The notes beneath the pieces were generated by a model. That model did no database searches. It was not told the DNA's origin and saw only the letters and a list, made by a program, of their open reading frames with translations. The translations under genes were made by a program, and so were the position numbers. This document shows, piece by piece, positions 10,960 to 42,768 of a DNA stretch of 48,954 bases; the first letter of the stretch is position 1, and each line of letters begins with the position of its first letter. The stretch is from an uncultured Candidatus Saccharibacteria bacterium. Lineage in GTDB: Bacteria > Patescibacteriota > Doudnabacteria > UBA920. The stretch lies in the NCBI GenBank assembly GCA_964592725.1, contig CAZQFQ010000003.1:1-48954 (forward strand), read 5' to 3'.

Positions 10960-11072
10960 CCGGCATCATCCTGATCCTGTCATCCGTAAAACCAAGCGAG
11001 CGAAGGATCTCTTCTTCTTCGAGATTCTTCGGCCTTCAAAAGTATGCTATTAGGGCCTCAGAATGACGCCGG
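10960..11072. repeat. GTCATCCTGAG...CGAAGGATCTC palindromic element
   Basis: Termini CCGGCATCATCCTGA / CTCAGAATGACGCCGG and centre CGAAGGATCTC..GAGATTCTTCG. Same family as 17351-17452, 30767-30891 and 40048-40148. Confidence 0.7.
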
Positions 11073-17350: not shown

Positions 17351-17452
17351 GGCGTCATTCTGAGTCCCGAATGCATCTGAGGGGCGAAGAATCTCTTCCT
17401 TTACCTAAGATGAGATCCTTCGCATCGGATGCACTCCGCTCAGGATGACGCC
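17351..17452. repeat. GTCATCCTGAG...CGAAGGATCTC palindromic element
   Basis: GGCGTCATTCTGAG..CGAAGAATCTC..GAGATCCTTCG..CTCAGGATGACGCC. A half copy lies at 17732-17773. These repeats supply the first and last codons of the ORF-track call 17440-17754. Confidence 0.75.
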
Positions 17453-17754
17453 GACTGTGATTGCTGGTTATTCTTTTTAATTAAATAGGCAAACAGCTTG
17501 CCCGGGCTCTTTACATCTTTCCCTTCCAAAACCTGGCCCATCAGGCTCCTTAAAAAATTGTGGTCATACAAAGTGGCCATTTTTAAATAAAAGCCAAAAT
17601 GCTTTTTATCGTTCAGCTTTACCGACAGCTCATCGGCCAGCAAATGAGCGGGGGAGTGGAGGTGGGTATCCTTCTTCGGTTTTGCCGATGAAAATTTGGC
17701 AATTTTTCCTATGGATTCCATAAACCTCTCCGGCGTCATTCTGAGGCCTTGCAT
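17440..17754 (-). CDS. hypothetical protein
   Basis: 104-aa ORF. Residues 1-11 and the last 4 residues are encoded by flanking repeat copies, so the likely true start is MESIGK at 17721. Confidence 0.5.
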   Translation of the reverse strand: MQGLRMTPERFMESIGKIAKFSSAKPKKDTHLHSPAHLLADELSVKLNDKKHFGFYLKMATLYDHNFLRSLMGQVLEGKDVKSPGKLFAYLIKKNNQQSQSASS

Positions 17755-22154: not shown

Positions 22155-23006
22155 ATGCCGATCAAATTCAAAACCCTTTTTCTCTCCCTGCTCCTGGTTG
22201 AACTCCTTTTTGCCTATGCTCCGGCCTTTGCCCAAAGCCCGTCGCCGGATTACAGCAAAGCCGGGGTATCCACGCAAATTGAAACCTATCTCTGCAATCC
22301 CACCGATACGACCGGGGGGATCCTGTATAAATGCATTAACCAAATTTACAAATTTGCCATAGTGGTGGCCAGCGTTATGGGCGTGTTCTTTATTGTCATT
22401 GCCGGCTATGTTTATATGTCGGCCGAGGGCAACAGCGAATCCACAACCAAAGCCAAGGACATCTTAGTTAGCACCATCACCGCTTTGGTCATCCTGTTTG
22501 GCGGCTACGCCTTGCTCAACACCATCAACCCCGACCTGGTCCAATTCCACGGCAATACCTTACAGCCGGTGAATATTGCGGCGCCGGCAGTAACAACGGG
22601 AATTACTACGCCTTTAGCAGGTTACAATATTGGTGCATATGATGCCGGTGAGCCCCAACAAGCCGTTGCCGTAACCTCCATATATAATAGACTTTTGGCA
22701 TTAAATCTGTCTACGGCAGATCAAATGACGCAGTATATGAATAGCTCAGCCCAAGGTATCGGAAAAAGCGGGAGTCCAATTACCGGGCAAATGGTTCTAA
22801 GTGCCTCTTCTGCCACAAATGTTGACCCTAAAATGGTTATGGCGATTATGGAAGAAGAAAGCCATTATGGAAGCGATGGGGCAAGCACCGCAGTTGCTAA
22901 TTTTAACCCGGGAAATATACAATCAGGAAATTCTGACATAAATTACGGTAATTGGCAGGCGGGAGTAAATGCGGTAGCTAATTGGCTTAATGGCCATAGG
23001 GCTTGA
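22155..23006 (+). CDS. TrbC/VirB2-type pilin-like N-terminal module fused to a GH73/lysozyme-like C-terminal domain
   Basis: Signal peptide, Cys pair, two TM helices (FAIVVASVMGVFFIVIAGYVYM; TALVILFGGYALL) and NPDLV. The C-terminus VDPKMVMAIMEEESHYG..NFNPGNI..NYGNWQAGVNAVANWL fits a glucosaminidase-type muramidase pattern. Confidence 0.55.
   Translation: MPIKFKTLFLSLLLVELLFAYAPAFAQSPSPDYSKAGVSTQIETYLCNPTDTTGGILYKCINQIYKFAIVVASVMGVFFIVIAGYVYMSAEGNSESTTKAKDILVSTITALVILFGGYALLNTINPDLVQFHGNTLQPVNIAAPAVTTGITTPLAGYNIGAYDAGEPQQAVAVTSIYNRLLALNLSTADQMTQYMNSSAQGIGKSGSPITGQMVLSASSATNVDPKMVMAIMEEESHYGSDGASTAVANFNPGNIQSGNSDINYGNWQAGVNAVANWLNGHRA
22167..22597 (+). repeat. 431-bp exact direct repeat, copy 1 (5' module of the pilin-like genes)
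   Basis: Base-for-base identical to 23438-23868 by direct comparison of the printed sequence. Confidence 0.9.
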
Positions 23007-23419
23007 ATTTTATGACCAACAAATTAAAAATAACAATTATAGCCCTTAGTGTTTTAATATTTTTGGGGATTTTAGGAATCTTCCTTGTTTTGATATCGAA
23101 CAAAAATAACTCTGCGCAGACTGCACAAACTTATTCTTCTTATACTTTTTCGGCCACGGAATTTGACAAAATCGTTACAGAAAAAGTAACGGCCAATGGG
23201 CAAAACATACCGATAAACTCTGATAATTTAAATCAATACGGGATTGTGACCTTTAACACCCCCCATGACATTATGTGGGTTTTGTGCCCTAATGGCTATA
23301 AACAAAGCAATCCGACCAGCTCAACTAACAACAGACCCGACCTGGTCCAGGATGTAGGATCTACTATTGATATCACAGAAGGCGTTCAAAACAATTTAAC
23401 TGTAACTTGCAGCAAATAA
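23003..23419 (+). CDS. small membrane-anchored protein between the two pilin-like genes
   Basis: 138-aa ORF. ATG at 23012 is the likely start (MTNKLKITIIALSVLIFLGILGIFLVLI). Extracytoplasmic domain has 2 Cys and no known motif. Confidence 0.5.
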   Translation: MNFMTNKLKITIIALSVLIFLGILGIFLVLISNKNNSAQTAQTYSSYTFSATEFDKIVTEKVTANGQNIPINSDNLNQYGIVTFNTPHDIMWVLCPNGYKQSNPTSSTNNRPDLVQDVGSTIDITEGVQNNLTVTCSK

Positions 23420-23425
23420 ATCTTT

Positions 23426-24301
23426 ATGCCCCAAACCTTCAAAACCCTTTTTCTCTCCCTGCTCCTGGTTGAACTCCTTTTTGCCTATGCTCCGGCCTTT
23501 GCCCAAAGCCCGTCGCCGGATTACAGCAAAGCCGGGGTATCCACGCAAATTGAAACCTATCTCTGCAATCCCACCGATACGACCGGGGGGATCCTGTATA
23601 AATGCATTAACCAAATTTACAAATTTGCCATAGTGGTGGCCAGCGTTATGGGCGTGTTCTTTATTGTCATTGCCGGCTATGTTTATATGTCGGCCGAGGG
23701 CAACAGCGAATCCACAACCAAAGCCAAGGACATCTTAGTTAGCACCATCACCGCTTTGGTCATCCTGTTTGGCGGCTACGCCTTGCTCAACACCATCAAC
23801 CCCGACCTGGTCCAATTCCACGGCAATACCTTACAGCCGGTGAATATTGCGGCGCCGGCAGTAACAACAGTAACTCCGGTCACAACCGCATGCAACCAAA
23901 CTTTTGGAGGTAGCGCATCTGTGGGATGTAGCGGATCAAGCTGCGTGAATGTATCATCTTATACTTCTAGCCATGACTGCAGTAGTAATGGGGGAGTATG
24001 TCTGCTTTCCCAGCAAGCCGCTCAAAAAGCCCAAAATCTCATCAATAATTTTAACCAAGCGGGGGCCGGTTGTACTTTAAAAATATCAGCAGCAATTGAA
24101 AGCGCCACAGGACCCAGTATTTCTTCTTGTCATAGTAACGGAACTTGCGCTGATTTTAACCTAATACCCTACAATTCCACCTGTGCACAGGCATTTTATA
24201 ATGCGGCTCAAGCCGCTGGCGCAGTTTCACTTTTGGATGAATATGTCCCAGCTTGCGTAGCCGGCTCGACCACAGGGGGAAATATCCACGTAAATTTTTA
24301 A
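23426..24301 (+). CDS. TrbC/VirB2-type pilin-like N-terminal module fused to a Cys-rich LAS/M15-like (D-Ala-D-Ala peptidase fold) C-terminal domain
   Basis: The N-terminal 148 aa are identical to 22155-23006 from residue 5 onward. The C-terminus has SSCHSNGTCADFNL (SxHxxGxAxD) and a terminal GGNIHVNF, consistent with a zinc peptidase of the LAS/M15 type. Confidence 0.5.
   Translation: MPQTFKTLFLSLLLVELLFAYAPAFAQSPSPDYSKAGVSTQIETYLCNPTDTTGGILYKCINQIYKFAIVVASVMGVFFIVIAGYVYMSAEGNSESTTKAKDILVSTITALVILFGGYALLNTINPDLVQFHGNTLQPVNIAAPAVTTVTPVTTACNQTFGGSASVGCSGSSCVNVSSYTSSHDCSSNGGVCLLSQQAAQKAQNLINNFNQAGAGCTLKISAAIESATGPSISSCHSNGTCADFNLIPYNSTCAQAFYNAAQAAGAVSLLDEYVPACVAGSTTGGNIHVNF
23438..23868 (+). 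repeat. 431-bp exact direct repeat, copy 2
   Basis: Identical to 22167-22597. Confidence 0.9.
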
Positions 24302-26876: not shown

Positions 26877-28253
26877 ATGAAATACGCCTTTATTTTAGGG
26901 AGGGTTTATACTTTATCGGTCGCCGAACTTTTGGCTGTTTTGGAAAAAACAGATGCCTCTTTAAATTTAACCGGAGAGCCTGTCAAAATTTTGGAAGCTT
27001 CGGAAGAAGTTTTGATAGTGGAAACTAGCAAACCCCTTAACGCGGAGCGTCTGCAAAAAAAACTGGGCGGAGTAATAAAAATTTTGGAAGTTGTTGATAT
27101 TATAAAAAAACGCGAGCAGGATTCGGTTAACTTTGCCCTAAAGCATTATTTTAAACCGGGAATTTTAAAAAATAAATTCTTTAAAGATTACAAAGGCAAA
27201 GTGCAATTCGGTTTGAGCATTTATGTTTTGGATATGGATTTGCTCAAGCGGCCTCAACCGAATTTCAGAGATAAAGATCGGGGGCAATCTTTTTCCGCCG
27301 GAGGCGGATCGTCCCTTGGCGGAAACTCCATCTTTAGTGAACCAAAGCGCATCGGAATGATGATAAAAAACGGGCTCACCGAAAGCGGCGCGAGCGCAAG
27401 ACTGGTTTTGCCGGAATACAATTCCCTATCTTTGGCTTCCGTAGTCGTTACCAAAAATTTATTGTTGCAAAAAGGCGCGGAAATTTGCATTCTGGCGGCC
27501 AAAGATAACATTTTTACCGCCAAGACTTTAACCGTGCAGGATTTTGAAGACTACGGCAGAAGGGATTACCAACGTCCTGCCCGCAACGAAAAACAGGGAA
27601 TGATTCCGCCGAAAGTGGCGCAAATTATGCTTAACCTTTCGGGTTGTAAATCCGGTAACGGAATTTTGGATCCGTTTTGCGGCATCGGCACAATCATTCA
27701 GGAAGGTTTACTGCTCGGCTTCCGGATGATTGGCAGTGATATTAATAAAATCGCGATAAAGGGTTCGGAGCAAAATTTGGAATGGTTCCGCAACCGCTAC
27801 AAAATCGCCCCGGGGAAATACGGCGTAGAAGTTTCCGACGCGGCAAAAGTCGCCGATCTAATTGAAAAATCTAAAAGCCAAATAGCCGCCATTGTTACCG
27901 AAGGCACACTTGGACCGATTTACGGCCAATACCCCAAAGCCGATGAAATTGCCAAAAATTTTAAAGACCTGGAAAAACTTTACAAAGCCAGTTTTAAAGA
28001 GTTTGCCAAATTCCTGCCAAAACAAGCCAGAATTGTTATGTGTATTCCGGCTTACAGAAAAAACCGCGACCAATACGAAATGTTCCCCTCTCTTGACTTC
28101 GCGACCGAGTTAGGATATAATTTAGTGGATATTATTTCTCCGACCGTAACTAAAAAGCTTAAATTCCTTAAGCTCACAGCCAGAAACACGGCAATTTACG
28201 ATCGAAAGGATCAGGTAGTCGCGAGGGAGATAGTTGTTTTTCAAAAAAATTAA
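26877..28253 (+). CDS. putative SAM-dependent RNA methyltransferase (Trm11/UPF0020-like)
   Basis: C-terminal Rossmann motif I, ILDPFCGIGTIIQEG, and GSDIN. The motif IV position reads TEGTLGP rather than DPPYG. Contains the repeat-derived insert SFSAGGGSSLGGN. Confidence 0.5.
   Translation: MKYAFILGRVYTLSVAELLAVLEKTDASLNLTGEPVKILEASEEVLIVETSKPLNAERLQKKLGGVIKILEVVDIIKKREQDSVNFALKHYFKPGILKNKFFKDYKGKVQFGLSIYVLDMDLLKRPQPNFRDKDRGQSFSAGGGSSLGGNSIFSEPKRIGMMIKNGLTESGASARLVLPEYNSLSLASVVVTKNLLLQKGAEICILAAKDNIFTAKTLTVQDFEDYGRRDYQRPARNEKQGMIPPKVAQIMLNLSGCKSGNGILDPFCGIGTIIQEGLLLGFRMIGSDINKIAIKGSEQNLEWFRNRYKIAPGKYGVEVSDAAKVADLIEKSKSQIAAIVTEGTLGPIYGQYPKADEIAKNFKDLEKLYKASFKEFAKFLPKQARIVMCIPAYRKNRDQYEMFPSLDFATELGYNLVDIISPTVTKKLKFLKLTARNTAIYDRKDQVVAREIVVFQKN
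27291..27325. repeat. TTTTCCGCC..GGCGGAAA double-hairpin repeat inserted in frame in the methyltransferase gene
   Basis: TTTTCCGCCGGAGGCGGATCGTCCCTTGGCGGAAA. Confidence 0.75.
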
Positions 28254-35340: not shown

Positions 35341-35772
35341 CTAATGCACCACGCCCCAGCGCTTGCGGAGACTTTCCACAATAAGCCGGGACAATTCCTC
35401 CTTCCTGAGCAGGCAGCCGTCCCGCTCAAACCTCTCCAAAAACTCCAAAAATGCCCACAGTAGCTGGCAAAGCTGCTGGCACACCGAGAGGTTGGATTCG
35501 TGCGCATACTGCCGAACGAAATCCGCCTCAACCCGCGAGAGCTTAACTTTGTCGTCAACAGGCACCGTATCAAAATCAAACTCTGTTGGCGCGAGCCGAA
35601 AGATTTTCTCGGTTTGGGCAATAGGCAGTAAAATTTCGAAACAGAGCACCATAAACTGGTGAGTGCTCATGCCCCGATGCTCTGCTGCCTTCCGGAGCGC
35701 CTTTGACAGCCGCCGGCTCATCTTAATCGAGAATAAAACAGGCGGCAACTCTTTTTTCGCATCCGTGCTCAT
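35341..35772 (-). CDS. ribbon-helix-helix (CopG/Arc-like) domain protein
   Basis: 143 aa. The N-terminus VLFSIKMSRRLSKALRKAAEHRGMSTHQFMVLCFE fits a beta-strand/helix/helix RHH pattern. The local region is more GC-rich. Confidence 0.45.
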   Translation of the reverse strand: MSTDAKKELPPVLFSIKMSRRLSKALRKAAEHRGMSTHQFMVLCFEILLPIAQTEKIFRLAPTEFDFDTVPVDDKVKLSRVEADFVRQYAHESNLSVCQQLCQLLWAFLEFLERFERDGCLLRKEELSRLIVESLRKRWGVVH

Positions 35773-35892: not shown

Positions 35893-36516
35893 TTAAGCTT
35901 CTATCTTATCGTATGCGCCCAACAAACCCAAAGTCAGGTTGATTATTTGTTTTATCTCCTTTATCTGGCTTTCAACCATTACCCTAATATCTTCCGGCAC
36001 TTCACCTTCAATCGGAACTCTTGAGTCGCCCTGGCCCAGCGCCACAAAAATAAGGAACTCCTGGCGCAAGTCCTCGTCCATCAGGGTAAGCGATCTGTTA
36101 ACAATTTCTGATTCCGCGGCTCCGGGCAAATCAATCAGCGCCTGGCTTCGGGCTTTCCGGAATGCTTCCCTAAGATGTTCCGGCGCTTTATCCAAATGGT
36201 CGTCGGGCTTGTCTATAAATTGAATTTTTTCCCTGGCGGCCAGCAATTCCCCAATCCTGTGCACCGAATGCAAAAGCAGCTCGCATTTCTGTTTGGAGAT
36301 AATTTTTTTCCTTACGATTTGCAGCAAAATCGTCTGGACCCCGAAAAAAAAAGTGGCGGATAGCTTTGAAGGTTTGTCGGCAGGCTGTTCCCTGTTTGTC
36401 GGTACAACATCGTTATAATTCCTGTTTAACTCCACCAAAGCGTCTATTGCCATTTTTTTAGCAATTTCTTTCTGGGATTCCACATCCTTTTGCTCGGACC
36501 GATGTTCAACCATCAT
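35893..36516 (-). CDS. hypothetical protein, predicted helical
   Basis: 207-aa ORF upstream of the RHH gene on the same strand. No recognisable motif. Confidence 0.5.
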   Translation of the reverse strand: MMVEHRSEQKDVESQKEIAKKMAIDALVELNRNYNDVVPTNREQPADKPSKLSATFFFGVQTILLQIVRKKIISKQKCELLLHSVHRIGELLAAREKIQFIDKPDDHLDKAPEHLREAFRKARSQALIDLPGAAESEIVNRSLTLMDEDLRQEFLIFVALGQGDSRVPIEGEVPEDIRVMVESQIKEIKQIINLTLGLLGAYDKIEA

Positions 36517-36583: not shown

Positions 36584-37063
36584 TCACTTTTTCTTTTGGT
36601 ATACGGCAAAAGCAAATTTAAAATTTCTTTCTTCCTGGATTTTATCCCACTGGCTCCAATCGATTTTTACAAAATATGCGTCGCCCGGATAATTGCCGTG
36701 GATATGGGTCATATACATTTTTTCGGCATAAGGCAAAGCGAGCTTAAAAATCTGCTCGCCGCCGATAATATATAAATCTTCATTTTTCAAAGCTTCAAAA
36801 GCCTGCTCCAGGCTGCCGAACACCAACACTCCCTGGGGCACTTTATAGTCGGCCTGCCTTGTAATAACCACATTTTTCCGCCCCGGCAGGGGCTTGCCCA
36901 GGCGCTTGACTATGGAATCGTAGGTCTTTCTGCCCATGACCACAGTCTTGCCCAAAGTGATTTCCTTAAACCGCTTGAGGTCTTCGGGAAAATACCAGGG
37001 CAGTTCATTGTCGCTGCCGATAACCAAATTGTCCGCCACTGCCACCGGGCCAAGAATAATCAT
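36584..37063 (-). CDS. folA: dihydrofolate reductase
   Basis: VIGSDNELPWYFPEDLKRFKEITLGKTVVMGRKTYDSI, LYIIGGEQIF. ATGA overlap with the upstream gene. Confidence 0.92.
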   Translation of the reverse strand: MIILGPVAVADNLVIGSDNELPWYFPEDLKRFKEITLGKTVVMGRKTYDSIVKRLGKPLPGRKNVVITRQADYKVPQGVLVFGSLEQAFEALKNEDLYIIGGEQIFKLALPYAEKMYMTHIHGNYPGDAYFVKIDWSQWDKIQEERNFKFAFAVYQKKK

Positions 37064-37443
37064 AAATATTGTTTCAAAAAAATTAAGATATCGCCAACTG
37101 ACGCATAGCGTATGATTTTAAAATTTGGATCTTGTATGCCCAGAATCATACGGGTAACTTTGGCGTCTTTTTGAGCTACTGCCAAAACTTTTTTTCCTAA
37201 ATTTAATCCCGTCGCGATTTCAAATCCCAAACCGGTGGAAGGATATGAGACTTCCGCCAAAAGCAGATCGCAATTTTTTACGCAACCAATGTCATGCCTA
37301 AAAACGGCCTCGGCATTACCATTAATCAAACCCAAATATTCTGAAACTTCGTGATCTTGGCTTAATTTTGACCTAAGCTTTGCCATTTCCGATTTGTATT
37401 CTTCGGGGGCATGGGTTAGGGAGTTTGCCAGATATATTTTCAT
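37060..37443 (-). CDS. nucleoside 2-deoxyribosyltransferase / Rcl(DNPH1)-like protein
   Basis: 127 aa from MKIYLANSL... The ATG at 37443 overlaps the tmk stop as ATGA. ..CDLLLAEVSYPSTGLGFEIATGLNLGKKV fits the family core. The longer ORF-track call (to 37542) overlaps tmk and was not used. Confidence 0.5.
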   Translation of the reverse strand: MKIYLANSLTHAPEEYKSEMAKLRSKLSQDHEVSEYLGLINGNAEAVFRHDIGCVKNCDLLLAEVSYPSTGLGFEIATGLNLGKKVLAVAQKDAKVTRMILGIQDPNFKIIRYASVGDILIFLKQYL

Positions 37444-38186
37444 GTTCTTGGCTTTATATCTTTTAAAGCTATCCTCCTGACCAGCTCCCAGACTTTGTTG
37501 TGGATTTGTTCGGGGGACATCAGCTCCTTGCCGGCCATGCATTCCACCAGTTTGGTGTTGGGGAAAAGTTTGGCGATTTGCAAGTAAACTTTTTCCGCGT
37601 TTTTTAAATGATTGAGGTCGGCCTCATGCAGGTCGCGCTTTTTACCGTTGGCGTATTTTCTTTCATCAGCCGATTTTAAATCCACCAATTTCTGCGCCAC
37701 TTCCGCCGGCACGTGCAAAATGATATTTAAGTCGGGTTTGGGGATGCCAAAAATGTTGTATTCAAGATTGTCCAGCCATTTAAAAAACTTCAGCCGGTCC
37801 AAATCATCGGCAATTTTGCCTCCCTGGTGTCCGGCGTTGGCCGTAACATAGCGATTGGAAATTACGATTTTCCCTTCGTTTAGCCAATTGCGGATTTTAA
37901 AGCTGGCGTCAAACCTGTCAATCGCGTAAAAGATAGACGCGGCTTCGGGTCCAACCTGCCCGTATTTTCCGTTTAAATATTCTTCAATAAGCCCCGCGGA
38001 TTTTGTGCCGTACTGCGGAAAGTCCGTCATCTCCAAAGGATATCCGTTCTTTTTTAACTCTTCTACAAGCAATTTAGTTTGTGTGGCCTTGCCAGTGCCG
38101 TCAGTGCCGTCAATAACTATAAACCTGCCTTTTTGGGGGGAAGATTTGAATTTTTTACTTTTACCAAAGGATAATTTGTTGAGCAT
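37440..38186 (-). CDS. tmk: thymidylate kinase
   Basis: P-loop FIVIDGTDGTGKATQ, a DRF-type motif (AIDRFD) and a lid region. Confidence 0.9.
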   Translation of the reverse strand: MLNKLSFGKSKKFKSSPQKGRFIVIDGTDGTGKATQTKLLVEELKKNGYPLEMTDFPQYGTKSAGLIEEYLNGKYGQVGPEAASIFYAIDRFDASFKIRNWLNEGKIVISNRYVTANAGHQGGKIADDLDRLKFFKWLDNLEYNIFGIPKPDLNIILHVPAEVAQKLVDLKSADERKYANGKKRDLHEADLNHLKNAEKVYLQIAKLFPNTKLVECMAGKELMSPEQIHNKVWELVRRIALKDIKPRT

Positions 38187-38192
38187 ATAAAA

Positions 38193-38975
38193 CTAACCCC
38201 GTTCCTTTTGGGCTTTATTAATGGCGGCTAACTGTTCAATTTCGAATTTTACTATTTCATAGGCCTTATGTTTTCTATAATCAGTTTCATAATGTGCTTC
38301 AAGAATTTGACCCTTGAAATCCATTTGGACATCTCTGTTTAATCGGCCACTCAGCTCTGTAAACAATTTCTGTTCATATTTGTCTGTCACCTGGCCATCA
38401 ACAAATTCAACTTTTTTGGATTCGACTTGGCCCATAATTTCAGCCCTGCGCGAACCCACTATAAAATCCGGAGACGGGACATACAACCCGGGTTTTAGAA
38501 CAACCTTATCTGCAAAATTTGTTTGATTAATGCCATAAGCCAATACAATACCGTTCGCGTTGGCCCACCATCTTAAATTCCTTTCCGCATAGTCTAAGCC
38601 CGAATAGCCGGAATGATATTTTAACCTGGCTTCAGTTGGAACCCACCAATCCACCCCTCCCTCAAAGGGTTGCTCCGAAATAAATTTTTCGTCGGTGACC
38701 ATAACGTCCACGTCTTTATGTGCGTCCAAATCAGCAATAGTATTACGCGGTTTCCATATTGCTTCCGCAACTCCACCGATTAACAATCCAACTGATTTTC
38801 TTTGTTTTAATAATTCGTCCGCTATTTTCATTCCTTGCAAGCCACGGACGGCATTAGGAAATTCACCATGGCGCAATTCCTGCCTAAAAGACAATAAAGT
38901 CTCCAGCGCCAATTTCTGTTTATGGTTAAACTTTTGTTCCAGCCTGTTTTGCTGTCGAAACTCAAATCCCGGCAT
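38193..38975 (-). CDS. hypothetical protein, possible minimal nucleotidyltransferase fold
   Basis: 260 aa. GLLIGGVAEAIW...HKDVDVMV resembles the G[SG]...DxD signature of pol-beta-type NTases. Embedded in the nucleotide operon. Confidence 0.3.
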   Translation of the reverse strand: MPGFEFRQQNRLEQKFNHKQKLALETLLSFRQELRHGEFPNAVRGLQGMKIADELLKQRKSVGLLIGGVAEAIWKPRNTIADLDAHKDVDVMVTDEKFISEQPFEGGVDWWVPTEARLKYHSGYSGLDYAERNLRWWANANGIVLAYGINQTNFADKVVLKPGLYVPSPDFIVGSRRAEIMGQVESKKVEFVDGQVTDKYEQKLFTELSGRLNRDVQMDFKGQILEAHYETDYRKHKAYEIVKFEIEQLAAINKAQKERG

Positions 38976-38976
38976 T

Positions 38977-39528
38977 TTAATTTTGTAGTTTACTTATAAT
39001 TTCATCCACTTTCTTATAAAGCTCCCCTAAACTTCCCGTGTTATCTATTCTAAAATCCGCCTGCTTGCCCAGTTCGGGAATTTCCAGTTCGGTGCGGCAG
39101 GTTTCGTGCTCTTTAAAATGCTCAAAATCCATTTGCGCGTCATCGGTTTTGCCGCTTTTTCCCCCGCGCCGGTTTTTATAGCGCTCAAATCGCGTCTCAA
39201 TCGGCGCCGTAATATAAATAATTTTTGCTCCCCAGGATTTTACAATGTCCAGCTCGTCCATTCGAATGCCGTTAACCACTCTATAGCCGGCCATAGAGCG
39301 TTTTACTCTTGGCTCCAAAGCGTTAATTAAGACGTGCTCGCCAAAAACTTCGCGAAGCCCCAGACCTAAGTCTATTTCATTTTTTCTGGAAATTTCCAAA
39401 TTCAATTCTTCTAAAATCGCGTCTAAAATGTGGCTAAAACGAAAATGCGAGGCGTTATATTTTTCCGCCATATAATCGGCTACCGTGTCTTTTCCCGCAA
39501 GTTTTTCTCCAACCAGACCTATTATCAT
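38977..39528 (-). CDS. P-loop kinase, phage-type dNMP kinase-like
   Basis: MIIGLVGEKLAGKDTVADYM.. (GxxGxxxAGKDT P-loop). 183 aa, 1 nt upstream of the next gene. Confidence 0.5.
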   Translation of the reverse strand: MIIGLVGEKLAGKDTVADYMAEKYNASHFRFSHILDAILEELNLEISRKNEIDLGLGLREVFGEHVLINALEPRVKRSMAGYRVVNGIRMDELDIVKSWGAKIIYITAPIETRFERYKNRRGGKSGKTDDAQMDFEHFKEHETCRTELEIPELGKQADFRIDNTGSLGELYKKVDEIISKLQN

Positions 39529-39593
39529 ATGTTAAACAATAAATTTCTACCAATTTCCTAATTTCGTGAGGCCGCAGGCCGAACAAATATCCA

Positions 39594-40034
39594 TTAATTC
39601 TGATATCCACCGGTGCTCCCAATCCCCCCACGATCGACATCGCGCAAACTGTCCGCCTCTTCCCACCGCGCCTGCTCGGTTCCGATGAATACGCCCTGCG
39701 CCAGACGCTCACCTTTTTTAACTTCTACGGGGCGGGAAGTAAAATTATGGACAATTATATGGACTTCATCATTAGGTCCGGCATAGTCCGGATCCACGAC
39801 TCCAATGCCGTTGGCCATTGCCAAACCTTTTTTTAGCGGCAGGCTGCTGCGAGCCGCTATGAGTAAAAAATGGCCTTTAGGGGCGGCAATTACCAATCCT
39901 GTGGGTATTTTTGCCACTTCACCCGGAGCTATGGTTATATCGATTGATGAAGCAATGTCAAAGCCGGCCGATTCGGAGGTGTGATATTTGGGAAGCTCAA
40001 CGTCTTTGGTTAATCGCTTAATTTTGGCTTTCAT
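39594..40034 (-). CDS. dut: dUTP diphosphatase (trimeric dUTPase)
   Basis: All five motifs: AGFDI, ARSS, GVVDPDYAGP, RLAQ, RGGIGSTG. Confidence 0.92.
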   Translation of the reverse strand: MKAKIKRLTKDVELPKYHTSESAGFDIASSIDITIAPGEVAKIPTGLVIAAPKGHFLLIAARSSLPLKKGLAMANGIGVVDPDYAGPNDEVHIIVHNFTSRPVEVKKGERLAQGVFIGTEQARWEEADSLRDVDRGGIGSTGGYQN

Positions 40035-40047
40035 AGGTATATCTCAC

Positions 40048-40148
40048 GGGCGTCATCCTGAGGAAGTGCATCCGACCGAAGGATCTCTTTACCGATTTGA
40101 GATCCTTCGCCCGCTTAGTTTTGCCGATGACGGGCTCAGGATGACGCC
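40048..40148. repeat. GTCATCCTGAG...CGAAGGATCTC palindromic element
   Basis: GGGCGTCATCCTGAGGAAGTGCATCCGACCGAAGGATCTC..GAGATCCTTCG..CTCAGGATGACGCC. Supplies the last codons of 40136-40696. Confidence 0.75.
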
Positions 40149-40696
40149 AGGTTGGTTAATACTTGATCGATTTTAGTAAACAACTCCTCCCTGCTCCCTT
40201 CGTTCACAATCGTCCAGTCCGCGCGCGCAATCGGTCCGGCCTGGTGGAGATTTTCAATTTGAGAATAATCGCGCGAAGCCAGCTCTCCCGGAGTCAGCGG
40301 CCGCACCGGCCGTTGCTCCATACGGGCGGTCCTGATTTTTGGCGATGCGTAAATTGCCAAAACTTTAAAACTCTCGCCAAATTGCTTTTTTACTTCCAAA
40401 TATTCTTCCCAGCTGTATAAACTTTCCACGATAACATTTGACGATTTAAATAATTCCTTAATCTTCGGCATATTAGCAACAGCCATTGCCCCGAGACCGT
40501 CTTTGTCGCGAAATTCCTCCCGCACTTCCCTCTCTCCGGCTTCCCCGGGTTTTCCCCGCCGCGCGGCCTCGTCTATAACCGCCTGCCCAAAATAAACTTT
40601 CGGCCAGCCGGTCTTTTTTAACAAATATTGCACAACTTCGGTTTTCCCGGCTCCGGGCAGACCGACTACTGCGAGAATAATTTTTTTCATAATCAT
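40136..40696 (-). CDS. P-loop nucleotide kinase (dephospho-CoA-kinase/UPF0200-like)
   Basis: ILAVVGLPGAGKTEVVQYL P-loop. 186 aa. ATGA overlap with the dCMP deaminase stop. Confidence 0.5.
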   Translation of the reverse strand: MIMKKIILAVVGLPGAGKTEVVQYLLKKTGWPKVYFGQAVIDEAARRGKPGEAGEREVREEFRDKDGLGAMAVANMPKIKELFKSSNVIVESLYSWEEYLEVKKQFGESFKVLAIYASPKIRTARMEQRPVRPLTPGELASRDYSQIENLHQAGPIARADWTIVNEGSREELFTKIDQVLTNLASS

Positions 40697-41181
40697 CTAC
40701 TGAATAATTCACTCGCTCCTTCGCACAAATAAACATCCCTAATACCGGCTGACAGCATTTTGTCCCAGCAAGGCTTACAACACCACCAATGGCCGTACAT
40801 ATAAAGATCGGCGCCGGAGATTGCGGCGTTTTTTCGCAAAGCGTCCAAAACCGCCCTGGCTTCCGCGTGATGCCTAAAACTGGCACAGCCCGGGCAAAGC
40901 CAATATTTTTGGCCTGAAGGAATATTTAACAAACGCCGAACGCAAAAATATTTTTTATGCCATCGTTTTAGAGTTTCATTTTTTAAAGCCGACTGGTTAG
41001 CCCCCCTGCCAATTACTACACCGTCTTTGACGACAACGGCTCCGGTCGAATGGGCGGTATCAGTCGAATCCCCTTTACAAACTTTCATGGCCTCCAGCAT
41101 GAATTCATTATTAAAGGGCGCGTATTTTATATCCTTGCCTTGCGGCATATAAGGATAGGGTTTTGATGAAATATATACCAT
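40693..41181 (-). CDS. dCMP deaminase (ComEB-type cytidine/deoxycytidylate deaminase)
   Basis: Zinc motifs HAEARAV and CKPCWDKM. 162 aa. Confidence 0.8.
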   Translation of the reverse strand: MVYISSKPYPYMPQGKDIKYAPFNNEFMLEAMKVCKGDSTDTAHSTGAVVVKDGVVIGRGANQSALKNETLKRWHKKYFCVRRLLNIPSGQKYWLCPGCASFRHHAEARAVLDALRKNAAISGADLYMYGHWWCCKPCWDKMLSAGIRDVYLCEGASELFSR

Positions 41182-41187
41182 CTACTA

Positions 41188-41853
41188 TTATACTTTTTTA
41201 AAAGGGAACTTTGCTTTTAAACCGTCAATATCGCCTTTTTTAATAAACGCAATTTCTTCTTCATTGTCGGTGCGGGCTTCCAAATTTACGGCTGTGGCAT
41301 TATCATACTTCGCGTGATCTACGCCGTGTTTAGCCGCGTCCGCTTCGGAAAGTTCGCTTGCCAAAAAATGGAATAAAAGCTGATAAGCACGTTCGCCCGG
41401 GTACAGCCTTAAACTATGATTTGTGCTGTTCTGCACGGGTATCAGCAAATGGCCTTTATAGCCCACGTCGACTATGCCGCCCTGGGTCACAAAACCTCGG
41501 CGAACAATGGAGCTGCGCGGATAAAGCACGGCTGAAATGTCCCTGGACCTAAATTCGACTTTTTCAAATGAGGAAATTAGCACTGACTCCTGCGGGAGCA
41601 CCTCAAAATATTGCCCGGCCTTTAATTTTATTAACTTTAAATAGTCCTGGTTGAATTCCTTGGTTAAATAGTCCGGCTGTACCGCTACTCTGCCGGCGTC
41701 GGTTAATTTCCAGCTTTCGGGCAAATAAAAACTGGTTCCTATGCGAAGGTCAATGGAATTAGGCTGGATTTGGAACTCGTCAAGTTGGGGGGAAAAGACA
41801 ATTTTGCCCTCTTCAATATATTTTACCAACTCGGTTTTTCCTAACATCGACAT
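41188..41853 (-). CDS. dCTP deaminase-family (dUTPase-fold) protein lacking the canonical catalytic Glu
   Basis: N-terminus ..IQPNSIDLRIG and core YPRSSIVRRG..VDVGYKGHLLIPVQN align by eye to Dcd (..VDVRLG; GRSSLARLG..IDPGWSGCIVLEFYN). The Glu of (V/T)LE is Pro here. Confidence 0.6.
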   Translation of the reverse strand: MSMLGKTELVKYIEEGKIVFSPQLDEFQIQPNSIDLRIGTSFYLPESWKLTDAGRVAVQPDYLTKEFNQDYLKLIKLKAGQYFEVLPQESVLISSFEKVEFRSRDISAVLYPRSSIVRRGFVTQGGIVDVGYKGHLLIPVQNSTNHSLRLYPGERAYQLLFHFLASELSEADAAKHGVDHAKYDNATAVNLEARTDNEEEIAFIKKGDIDGLKAKFPFKKV

Positions 41854-41874
41854 AACTTTGTAATTTTAATAATA

Positions 41875-42717
41875 TTACAAGACTATTTTTAACCCGGCTA
41901 TGGGCGGCATGGGCTCATATTGGGATGTCAGTATCCCCGTAATTTCCTCCACTAATTTTTCATCCCCAAGTTCGGCCCGGCCAAACCAATCCGGCTGGGC
42001 GTCCAATAGGACTTCCGGGTGTTTGTTCTCGCGCTCCAATAATTCCCAGGACTGTTTATAATGAATATCATAAATATGGGCGTTGGAAATGGAATGCGTG
42101 TAAGTCCCGGGCTTTACCCCTAAGCGCGCCGCCAATAAATGCTGCAATAAAGAAAATCCGGCAACATCATGGGGGCAGCCCAATATCATATCGTTTGAAC
42201 GGACCACGTTATGCAAATGTAATTTGTTGCCGATAATATTGACTGTAAATGTAAATGGGCAAGGCACATTTTTTTTCGGCGTGGATTTAAGTCCCGGGCC
42301 GTATAAACCATCGTCGGCCGGATCCCAAGTAACGACCACCGCCTGCCTCGAATGAGGCTCTATTTCCAAATGTTTGACCAACTGGCCAAGCTGATCGCGG
42401 CCAAAATGGTGGCGCCAGCGGTAGCCGTAAGCCGCCGCTACGGTGCCGTCGCTTTCCGTAAAATCTTTCCAAATGCCGGTGTATTTATTTAAAAACTCAT
42501 CCGGCCTTTTAGACCCCATAATATACCAAATCATTTCCGCCACAAATAACTTAATCGGAATTTTTCTTAGAGTCAACAGGGGAAAACCGTTATCCACGCG
42601 AATGGTTACACCGGGTAAAATCTTTATTTTATGCCCGGTTCTTTCATTTAGCTCCTCATAACCCTTGTTCATTATGTCCAAAATGGCTTTTTTGTATTCC
42701 TGATCAAATTGCGTCAT
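41875..42717 (-). CDS. thymidylate-synthase-family pyrimidine C5-modifying enzyme (non-canonical; Asp at the Asn177 position)
   Basis: Gap-free TS blocks: ERTG, AEMIWY, YGYRWR, catalytic VPCPF (Cys153, codon 42259-42261), RSNDMILGCPHDVAGF, AHIY. The canonical PFNIA reads PHDVA (Asp184, codon 42166-42168). Strong SD AAGGAGG lies upstream. Confidence 0.8.
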   Translation of the reverse strand: MTQFDQEYKKAILDIMNKGYEELNERTGHKIKILPGVTIRVDNGFPLLTLRKIPIKLFVAEMIWYIMGSKRPDEFLNKYTGIWKDFTESDGTVAAAYGYRWRHHFGRDQLGQLVKHLEIEPHSRQAVVVTWDPADDGLYGPGLKSTPKKNVPCPFTFTVNIIGNKLHLHNVVRSNDMILGCPHDVAGFSLLQHLLAARLGVKPGTYTHSISNAHIYDIHYKQSWELLERENKHPEVLLDAQPDWFGRAELGDEKLVEEITGILTSQYEPMPPIAGLKIVL

Positions 42718-42739
42718 AATCGTACTTTTTTACCTCCTT

Positions 42740-42768
42740 ATTCTACACCAATTTTTAATGGTTGACAA
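42740..42768 (-). promoter_or_regulatory. sigma70-type promoter of the nucleotide operon
   Basis: Minus strand TTGTCA, 17-nt spacer, TAGAAT. Followed by AAGGAGG and the ATG at 42717. Confidence 0.6.

Follow-up and report, generated by a model that had tools for sequence, protein, structure and literature searches.

Cells are thought to make thymidylate (deoxythymidine monophosphate, dTMP) in two ways only, through ThyA or through ThyX, both starting from deoxyuridine monophosphate (dUMP). The operon described here raises the question of whether some bacteria take these steps in the opposite order, first adding the methyl group to a cytosine nucleotide and then removing its amino group. It lies in a window of 48,954 nucleotides (nt), by which we mean the whole stretch of DNA that was analyzed (contig CAZQFQ010000003.1, positions 1 to 48,954, of assembly GCA_964592725.1), from an uncultured bacterium placed in the Doudnabacteria lineage of the Patescibacteria, or candidate phyla radiation (CPR). 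A first-pass annotation had likened the locus to the toolkit with which T-even phages make deoxynucleoside triphosphate (dNTP) precursors. It had offered three readings: a compact deoxythymidine triphosphate (dTTP) pathway, a route to dTMP through methylation and subsequent deamination of deoxycytidine monophosphate (dCMP), or a pathway that replaces cytosine in DNA. The second is the one favored by the evidence.

We propose, with a probability of roughly 0.6, that this is a housekeeping operon of a Doudnabacteria-like chromosome and that it encodes a rewired pathway of de novo thymidylate synthesis, with C5-methylation preceding deamination. The ten-gene run is a real operon in a Patescibacteria chromosome. 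Eleven genes had been claimed for it, in a list of ten entries; the listing of open reading frames (ORFs) in the window gives ten co-directional ORFs on the minus strand from 42717 to 36584.

Proposed pathway

The proposal builds on gene identities, on residue substitutions and their conservation, on the phylogenetic position of the thymidylate synthase (TS) homolog, and on gene linkage, all of which are observed. Families were assigned through Pfam, NCBIfam, PHROGs, and PDB sequence searches, and these matches confirm the family list given earlier. The genes that enter the central steps are as follows, with lengths in amino acids (aa).

41875-42717, minus strand: TS-family enzyme, 280 aa; PF00303, E=6e-50; predicted dCMP C5-methyltransferase
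41188-41853, minus strand: Dcd/dUTPase-fold protein, 221 aa; PF22769, E=2e-26; predicted dCTP or 5-methyl-dCTP pyrophosphatase
40693-41181, minus strand: zinc deaminase of the cytidine deaminase (CDA) fold, 162 aa; PF00383, E=4.5e-11; predicted to deaminate 5-methyl-dCMP to dTMP
37440-38186, minus strand: thymidylate kinase Tmk, 248 aa; PF02223, E=1e-22; NF005923, 118.6 bits, under the equivalog cutoff; dTMP to dTDP
36584-37063, minus strand: dihydrofolate reductase (DHFR), 159 aa; PF00186, E=1e-50; dihydrofolate (DHF) to tetrahydrofolate (THF) after reductive methyl transfer

In the first step, the Dcd-derived protein would split dCTP into dCMP and pyrophosphate (PPi). The ThyA homolog, which carries Asp at a position decisive for specificity (hereafter Asp-type), would then use methylene-THF (CH2-THF) to methylate dCMP to 5-methyl-dCMP, releasing DHF, and DHFR, joined in related genomes by serine hydroxymethyltransferase (SHMT), would close the folate cycle. 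The divergent CDA-fold deaminase would turn 5-methyl-dCMP into dTMP, from which Tmk would form dTDP. A canonical dUTPase and a DNPH1-like N-glycosidase would act as pool sanitizers, and two extra P-loop kinases would serve the phosphorylation of deoxynucleoside monophosphates (dNMPs). The nearby gene for CTP synthase fits a cytidine-based supply.

A TS homolog of predicted cytosine specificity

Aligned to E. coli ThyA and to ThyA proteins of solved structure, the window TS retains Cys153, Glu61, Tyr97, Arg26, Arg124, Arg173, Ser174, Asp176, His214, and Tyr216, so that the ThyA core residues (E. coli Cys146, Glu58, Tyr94, Arg21, Arg166, and Asp169) are all matched. The residues of ThyA selectivity are not: Asp184 stands at the position of E. 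coli Asn177 and Pro154 at that of His147. An Asp177-type site with the catalytic Cys retained is the feature of phage-type dCMP methyltransferases. With the exchange Asn177Asp, ThyA becomes a dCMP methylase (Liu & Santi 1992; Hardy & Nalivaika 1992, as cited in PMC8670742), and no other positions distinguish the TS genes of cytosine-modified contigs from those of unmodified ones as well as 177 and 147 do (PMC8670742). By these residues, the window TS appears to be of the cytosine-specific type. Its profile scores fall slightly over the cutoff for TIGR03284 (112.7 versus 108.35) and far under it for all the NF0024xx equivalogs (e.g., 136 versus 327).

The substitution is not peculiar to the window. 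Asp occupies the 177-equivalent position in 119 of the 120 closest homologs and in 79 of the 80 Patescibacteria loci retrieved; when the 150 best matches among representatives of 1.8 billion proteins are ranked, the first Asn/His-type enzymes come at about rank 94 (E ~1e-32), and such enzymes are common only from ~1e-29. A neighbor-joining tree of 123 full-length sequences split 111 Asp-type proteins cleanly from 12 Asn-type ones. The Asp-type side includes the window TS, the TS of phage PaMx74, and T4 gp42, with no Asn-type member; within the tree, the CPR proteins form a tight subclade, and of all the sequences compared T4 gp42 is the most remote (distance 0.89). All close homologs belong to the Patescibacteria/CPR (Doudnabacteria, Falkowbacteria, Uhrbacteria, Kuenenbacteria, and Parcubacteria). 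Among 50,697 phage genomes, the top matches were Pamexvirus (PaMx74 and PaMx28) and Xanthomonas phages at 33-40% identity, and no close relatives were found among IMG/VR viral contigs. PaMx74, named as a phage with full replacement, and Xp12 substitute 5-methylcytosine (5mC) for cytosine, and the Xp12 enzyme, together with five of seven related deaminase-linked Asp-type enzymes, makes 5-methyldeoxycytidine (5mdC) in vivo (bioRxiv 10.1101/2024.12.05.627091).

Two further features bear on the predicted reaction. The window TS has a full C-terminal lid, as do ThyA and the PaMx74 enzyme and unlike T4 gp42, which is without it. A hydroxymethylase does not oxidize its folate and does not require DHFR. 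Because the lid is full and the gene is linked to those for DHFR and SHMT, transfer of a methyl rather than a hydroxymethyl group is the likelier chemistry; the combination of lid and DHFR coupling is what a methyl-transferring enzyme would be expected to have, and the T4 gp42 profile is matched in the Asp but not in the C-terminus or the linkage. Similarly, the CMP preference of MilA goes with Ala for TS Ser167 and Lys for Arg126. The window TS matches neither of these residues, and since it keeps Ser174 and Arg124, a deoxy- rather than a ribonucleotide substrate is predicted.

Four other Asp-type homologs (P0124, P0157, P0164, and P0194) are longer, at 420-470 aa, and carry an extra N-terminal domain of ~150-190 aa. 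They may be fusions with a partner enzyme of the pathway.

A Dcd-like protein without the catalytic glutamate

The second non-canonical enzyme lies directly downstream. Alignment with the Dcd proteins of M. tuberculosis (Glu129) and E. coli (Glu138) places Pro139 at the catalytic Glu, and Pro occupies this position in all 46 Dcd-like orthologs from related loci. The first-pass annotation had rightly singled out two members of the operon as non-canonical; they are the TS with Asp184 and Pro154 and this protein with Pro139. The triphosphate-binding Ser114 and Arg118, the motif-III Asp129, and a dUTPase-like Tyr132 are kept, as is the D..Y.G motif, and the TIGR02274 score falls under its cutoff (89.2 versus 92.8). 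The Dcd-like protein is thus predicted to be unable to deaminate, and with the Glu lost and the residues of triphosphate hydrolysis kept, it is best read as a dNTP pyrophosphatase.

Its candidate substrates are narrowed by its neighbors. Linkage was counted in 57 loci in which the TS gene has 3 kb or more of flank to either side and, more widely, in 80 related loci. A canonical dut gene stands beside the Dcd-like gene in at least 11 of the 80 loci, in all three reciprocal look-ups described below, and in the window itself; because the two share a cluster, the Dcd-like protein is unlikely to be a substitute dUTPase. The most economical role would be to convert dCTP to dCMP and PPi, feeding the Asp-type TS, and sanitizing 5-methyl-dCTP is equally compatible with the data. 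The nearest viral relatives are archaeal-virus proteins at 27-31% identity, annotated as dUTPase or dCTP deaminase.

A divergent deaminase

The deaminase has invariant zinc motifs, HAE (His105-Ala-Glu107) and PCxxC (Cys135/Cys138), and an insert of ~40 residues in which His75, Cys80, Cys96, and Cys99 never vary; a GHWWCC segment is invariant too. It is otherwise remote from the canonical enzymes. The ComEB equivalog score is 27.4 bits against a cutoff of 219, and in the PDB sequence search solved dCMP deaminases match it only at E ~0.04. In an AlphaFold2 (AF2) model with a mean confidence (pLDDT) of 83, the closest folds are PBCV-1 bi-DCD, that of cyanophage S-TIM5, T4 cd, and human DCTD, at a TM-score of ~0.5, and RibD and TadA chains score like the dCMP deaminases. 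All named homologs among the matches listed are from Patescibacteria. Taken together, the deaminase appears to represent a divergent, Patescibacteria-specific family.

Three other identities were considered and rejected. Orthology with the PaMx74 deaminase was set aside, as BLASTP found no similarity between the window deaminase and PaMx74 cd. TadA, suggested by a few JGI names and by the fold matches, was dismissed because there is no TadA family match, the Cys/His-rich insert is placed as in dCMP deaminases, and the gene is fixed beside that of the TS. Finally, the deaminase and the kinase whose gene overlaps it by ATGA (40136-40696) show weak partial matches (E ~1e-6 to 5e-4) to the anti-phage "dCTP deaminase" models NF041025 and PDLC02373, which describe a kinase-like domain fused to a deaminase. 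This hints that the defense enzyme and the deaminase-kinase pair are distantly related. An anti-phage nucleotide-depletion system was nevertheless rejected, given that the PADLOC and NCBIfam matches are weak and partial (E ~5e-6) and the context is a housekeeping one.

A conserved chromosomal locus in Patescibacteria

The three enzymes and DHFR are found together well beyond the window. A deaminase gene lies within 3 kb of the TS gene in 45 of the 57 loci, DHFR in 38, and a Dcd-like gene in 29. The deaminase and TS genes are divergent in some lineages and co-directional in others, and their proximity in such differing arrangements speaks for functional coupling rather than inherited gene order. 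Across dozens of independent Patescibacteria genomes, with varied orders and orientations, the linkage of TS, deaminase, DHFR, and Dcd-like genes exceeds chance. Tmk also recurs in the related clusters.

Look-ups in the reciprocal direction, starting from deaminase homologs, gave the same picture in three of three cases. TS, Dcd-like, and DHFR genes run one way, and deaminase, dut, tmk, and SHMT genes run the other, at times with an NT5C gene before dut and a NUDIX gene before SHMT. Since SHMT is in the cluster each time, these loci hold a complete TS/DHFR/SHMT folate cycle. Both TSs with readable DNA carry the Asp and the Pro.

The setting of the operon is likewise shared. One flank encodes NusG, L11, a Band-7 protein, DUF5671, L1, and a response regulator, and the opposite flank RF2, FtsE, FtsX, L9, and CTP synthase, so that the operon sits between ribosomal-protein and cell-division genes. 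Farther out are genes for a MacB-type transporter, S-adenosylhomocysteine (SAH) hydrolase, Fmt, deformylase, and GltX. Together with the three tRNA genes in the window, these ribosomal, cell-division, and translation genes indicate a cellular chromosome. A Doudnabacteria relative (L087) has its operon (TS, Dcd-like, deaminase, Tmk, Nuc_deoxyrib_tr, HAD hydrolase, and DHFR) in the neighborhood SecE-YdjM-NusG-Band7-L11-DUF5671-L1 ... FtsE-FtsX-L9-PyrG. Overall, this is a conserved chromosomal housekeeping locus near SecE-NusG-L11-L1 in several Patescibacteria lineages, and neither mobile nor a phage-like toolkit. Searches of the window and of ~1.2 Mb of flanking DNA from related loci found neither thyX nor a second thyA.

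At two loci of other lineages (L088, 2976-8262, and L089, 2890-8991), the module has this divergent layout near SecE-NusG-L11 and gains SHMT and an NT5C-type 5'-deoxynucleotidase or a NUDIX hydrolase; the Doudnabacteria relative has its HAD hydrolase in their place.

Weighing the proposal against its alternatives

Several points weigh against a pathway that methylates first. Residues and gene linkage are the basis of every substrate assignment in it. Its genes (dCMP deaminase, Dcd-like, dut, thyA, folA, and tmk) are exactly those of the canonical dUMP route as well, and Asn177Asp mutants of ThyA keep some activity on dUMP. The Dcd-like protein could act on dUTP, since the label dUTPase has been given to Glu-less relatives from archaea and archaeal viruses. 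A single phage 5mC deaminase, mSCD-B5, has been characterized in depth, and it accepts triphosphates only (bioRxiv 10.1101/2024.12.05.627091); deamination here could therefore take place at the level of 5mdCTP, which would put 5mdCTP in the nucleotide pool. At the same time, the window deaminase is not an ortholog of PaMx74 cd, and the phage result is for this reason not directly transferable.

The most serious competitor is an ordinary compact dTTP operon, in which the deaminase would convert dCMP to dUMP, dut and the Dcd-like protein would convert dUTP to dUMP, the TS would methylate dUMP despite Asp184, and DHFR and Tmk would complete the pathway. We consider it unlikely. Its gene set is that of the canonical Gram-positive-type pathway, and databases and papers alike label the proteins thymidylate synthase and treat CPR thyA and folA as canonical; at the enzyme level, however, several observations speak against it. 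The TS does pass the TIGR03284 cutoff, if slightly, yet the Asp at the specificity position is fixed family-wide, its clade holds T4 gp42 and the PaMx74 TS and no Asn-type member, and His147 is replaced as well. The Glu-less Dcd-like proteins annotated as dUTPases in archaeal viruses offer a precedent for the role proposed for the Dcd-like protein, but the loss of Glu in 46 of 46 orthologs removes the canonical step from dCTP to dUTP, and a redundant Dcd-type dUTPase beside a canonical dut is hard to explain. The deaminase, too, is far from canonical dCMP deaminases. An ordinary operon must thus ignore three independent departures from canonical enzymes, each fixed across its family.

Replacement of cytosine in the chromosome is less likely again. 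Here the Dcd-like protein would deplete dCTP, the TS would make 5-methyl-dCMP, and an extra dNMP kinase would phosphorylate it, so that the DNA would contain 5mC largely or wholly in place of cytosine while the deaminase turned some of the 5mdC pool into dT, as happens in Xp12 and PaMx74. The functional module is indeed that of PaMx74 (pyrophosphohydrolase, Asp-type TS, deaminase, and DHFR), and the triphosphate preference of the phage 5mC deaminase would suit it. The two extra P-loop kinases, one of them of the phage dNMP-kinase type (phrog_139) and near the TS gene in 14 of 80 loci, could serve such a pathway, but neither is a core member of the cluster, and the recurrent Tmk fits a dTMP intermediate. 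No reports of anomalous cytosine in CPR DNA were found in the literature, though perhaps nobody has looked. We know of no cellular organism with complete base replacement, which sets the prior for this explanation very low.

A hydroxymethyl or secondary-metabolite pathway, in which the TS would hydroxymethylate (d)CMP like gp42 or MilA and the Rcl-like glycosidase would release the modified base like MilB, is very improbable: an Asp-type TS with a Nuc_deoxyrib_tr hydrolase does resemble the MilA/MilB pair, but linkage to DHFR and SHMT implies the production of DHF, a product that hydroxymethylases do not form, the TS has the C-terminal lid missing from gp42, Ser174 and Arg124 are deoxy-preferring, unlike the Ala and Lys of MilA, the glycosidase is nearest to DNPH1/Rcl and not to MilB, and the chromosomal context is one of housekeeping genes.

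A thymidylate pathway through 5-methyl-dCMP is accordingly the reading we prefer for this operon. It can be pushed further, to the claim that much of the Patescibacteria radiation is without any dUMP-dependent thymidylate synthase and obtains thymidylate solely through methylation of dCMP and deamination of 5-methyl-dCMP. At its strongest, the claim is that 5-methyl-dCTP also reaches the replisome and that chromosomal cytosine is largely or entirely 5mC, which would be the first wholesale base replacement in a cell and would use the module of Xp12-type phages. Such an extension is speculative, and we would be surprised if it held.

Operon structure and accessory genes

The remaining features of the operon are listed below.

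42740-42768, minus strand: promoter-like site TTGTCA-17-TAGAAT, predicted by a consensus scan (10/12 matches)
40136-40696, minus strand: P-loop nucleotide kinase, 186 aa, AdkA-like / UPF0200 type; accessory member
40049-40148, no strand assigned: nested palindromic intergenic repeat with a 14-bp outer stem and an 11-bp inner stem
39594-40034, minus strand: canonical trimeric dUTPase, 146 aa; TIGR00576, 118 bits versus a cutoff of 102.6; PF00692
38977-39528, minus strand: dNMP-kinase-like P-loop kinase, 183 aa; phrog_139, E=1e-18; PRK08356-like
38193-38975, minus strand: orphan protein, 260 aa, with a G67-G68 / D88-x-D90 / D109 motif
37060-37443, minus strand: Rcl/DNPH1-like 2'-deoxynucleoside 5'-phosphate N-glycosidase, 127 aa; PF05014

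The layout agrees in most respects with what had been described. The single-transcript model and the promoter are predicted from consensus matches; the site at 42740-42768 is promoter-like, as had been claimed, and an AAGGAGG ribosome-binding site lies ~14 nt ahead of the ATG at 42717. Likewise, the ORF coordinates and the repeat analysis bear out the description of short spacers and ATGA overlaps with two long exceptions, one of them filled by a palindrome: start and stop codons overlap at 40693-40696, 37440-37443, and 37060-37063, the remaining short spacers are 21, 6, 1, and 6 nt, and the long ones are 101 nt (40035-40135) and 65 nt (39529-39593). One gene start had to be revised. The ninth gene (Rcl-like), described as deoxyribosyltransferase-like, begins at 37443 and encodes 127 aa, rather than at the upstream ATG that would give a 160-aa ORF.

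Four of the genes (those for the 186-aa kinase, dUTPase, 183-aa kinase, and 260-aa protein) stand together between the deaminase and tmk genes in the window and are absent from the Doudnabacteria relative. Of these, the dUTPase has all five motifs present in its sequence. The 183-aa kinase, found within 3 kb of the TS gene in 14 of 80 loci, is recurrent but non-core and could serve dNMP salvage or the phosphorylation of 5-methyl-dCMP. The 186-aa kinase and the 260-aa protein do not belong to the conserved set, occurring near the TS gene in only 1 and 0 of the 80 related loci, respectively.

The 260-aa protein has only 16 homologs besides itself among 5.8 billion proteins, one of them labeled Pacearchaeota, and they occur in unrelated genomic contexts; it is an accessory passenger and not a conserved member of the pathway. 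A nucleotidyltransferase role had been suggested for it. The GG, DxD, and D motifs behind that idea are conserved among the homologs, but profile searches of Pfam, NCBIfam, PHROG, PADLOC, and PDB gave no match, and an AF2 model (pLDDT 80) found no matching fold in PDB and BFVD with Foldseek. The motifs hint at a nucleotidyltransferase-like active site, perhaps on an undescribed fold.

The solved structures nearest to the Rcl-like protein are those of Rcl/DNPH1 (E=1e-6), with MilB at 0.5. Aligned with rat and human Rcl/DNPH1, its active site reads LAEVSYPSTGLGFE versus VAEVTQPSLGVGYE; the AEV motif retains its catalytic Glu, and the phosphate-binding segment S..G.G.E is kept as well. The gene recurs beside the deaminase gene in several loci, and the enzyme is predicted to remove unwanted dNMP.

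The palindrome fills the 101-nt spacer and reaches into the final codons of the gene for the 186-aa kinase. Its predicted fold has an energy of -53 kcal/mol (z = -5.9). It belongs to a dispersed family of nested palindromes, with outer arms GGCGTCATYCTGAG / CTCAGRATGACGCC and inner arms CGAAGGATCTC / GAGATCCTTCG, that has copies of ~100 nt each at 40049-40148, 10962-11070, and 17351-17452 and a partial copy at 17732-17745; Rfam returned no match. The element may be related to repetitive extragenic palindromes or miniature inverted-repeat transposable elements (REP/MITE-like), or it may be a site of transcript processing or attenuation.

Directly 3' of the DHFR gene, after a gap of 67 nt in which no convincing terminator was seen, are two more minus-strand ORFs of 207 aa (35893-36516) and 143 aa (35341-35772). 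They have no Pfam match and were absent near the TS gene in the related genomes examined; they may be lineage-specific genes co-transcribed with the operon. Elsewhere in the window, the plus strand carries two tandem genes for type IV secretion system (T4SS)-pilin-like proteins (22155-24301), which are typical of Patescibacteria, and a gene for a 458-aa protein with an N6/N4 DNA-methylase-like domain (26877-28253).

Novelty and implications

In the full-text literature, subscription journals not covered, we found no paper on an Asp-type ThyA of Patescibacteria or on a cellular route through dCMP methylation. Recent CPR papers treat thyA and folA as canonical, and a CPR folA complements E. coli with folA deleted. 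A thymidylate route that methylates and then deaminates is so far known only from phages with 5mC DNA.

If the proposal is correct, a major bacterial radiation would use a third cellular route to thymidylate, by way of 5-methyl-dCMP. Metabolic reconstructions of the CPR would change, as annotations of "thyA", "dcd", and "dCMP deaminase" would be functionally wrong, and a Dcd-derived dCTP pyrophosphatase would constitute a new enzyme family. The deaminases would form a cellular family of candidate 5mC-selective enzymes, of practical interest for methylation sequencing. The locus also raises the question of 5mC-substituted DNA in ultra-small bacteria and bears on the origin of the 5mC-phage toolkit.

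Comparison with known systems

With the canonical ThyA-DHFR cycle, the operon shares its families (PF00303, PF00186, PF22769, PF00692, PF00383, and PF02223) and the logic of the folate cycle, and thyA-folA synteny is already known. It differs in the Asn-to-Asp and His147-to-Pro exchanges of the TS, in the Glu-to-Pro exchange of the Dcd-like protein, and in a deaminase far under the ComEB cutoff. In the predicted pathway, methylation precedes deamination instead of following it.

The T4 set resembles the operon in having an Asp-type TS homolog, here predicted to act on dCMP as well, a supply of dCMP from dCTP, a dNMP kinase, an enzyme of the dCMP-deaminase family, and DHFR. T4 gp56, however, belongs to an all-alpha family and is not a homolog of the Dcd-like protein; gp42 is without the C-terminal lid, and the reaction predicted for the window TS transfers a methyl group, not a hydroxymethyl group. 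In addition, T4 has a td of its own that is specific for dUMP, and none was seen in the window. The likeness to T-even phages drawn at the outset therefore holds as a loose functional analogy and no further, because the TS, with its lid and its linkage to DHFR and SHMT, fits an enzyme of the methyl-transferring kind, as in Xp12 and PaMx74; the PaMx74 module is the closer parallel.

MilA and MilB, the CMP hydroxymethylase and hydroxymethyl-CMP (hmCMP) N-glycosidase of mildiomycin synthesis, likewise pair a cellular Asp-type TS homolog with a hydrolase of the Nuc_deoxyrib_tr family. Ala176 and Lys133 of MilA are Ser and Arg in the window TS, the glycosidase is DNPH1-like, and a cluster that includes DHFR, SHMT, and Tmk speaks for a role in making DNA precursors.

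Archaea and their viruses have Dcd-like dUTPases that are without the deaminase Glu and work as pyrophosphatases. Like the window protein they are Dcd-type in sequence, and the virus records annotate them as dUTPase or dCTP deaminase. Identity is only 27-31%, and the genes near that of the window protein, a canonical dut and one for an Asp-type TS, speak for another substrate, either dCTP or 5mdCTP.

Of the systems known, the module of the 5mC phages Xp12 and PaMx74 comes closest. These phages have an Asp177/Pro147-type TS homolog with a full C-terminus, and in PaMx74 its gene shares a cluster (pyrophosphohydrolase-thyA-cd-frd) with those for a CDA-family deaminase, DHFR, and a dNTP pyrophosphohydrolase. 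Unlike the phage module, that of the window is a conserved chromosomal locus of a cellular lineage, and the Patescibacteria cluster adds Tmk, dut, SHMT, and a DNPH1-like gene; its deaminase is not orthologous to PaMx74 cd, and its predicted pyrophosphatase is Dcd-derived, whereas that of PaMx74 is annotated as a pyrophosphohydrolase type. For the 5mC phages, dT has been proposed to arise from deamination of 5mdC nucleotides (bioRxiv 10.1101/2024.12.05.627091). That logic, thymidine by deamination of 5mdC, is common to the phage proposal and to our reading of the Patescibacteria operon.

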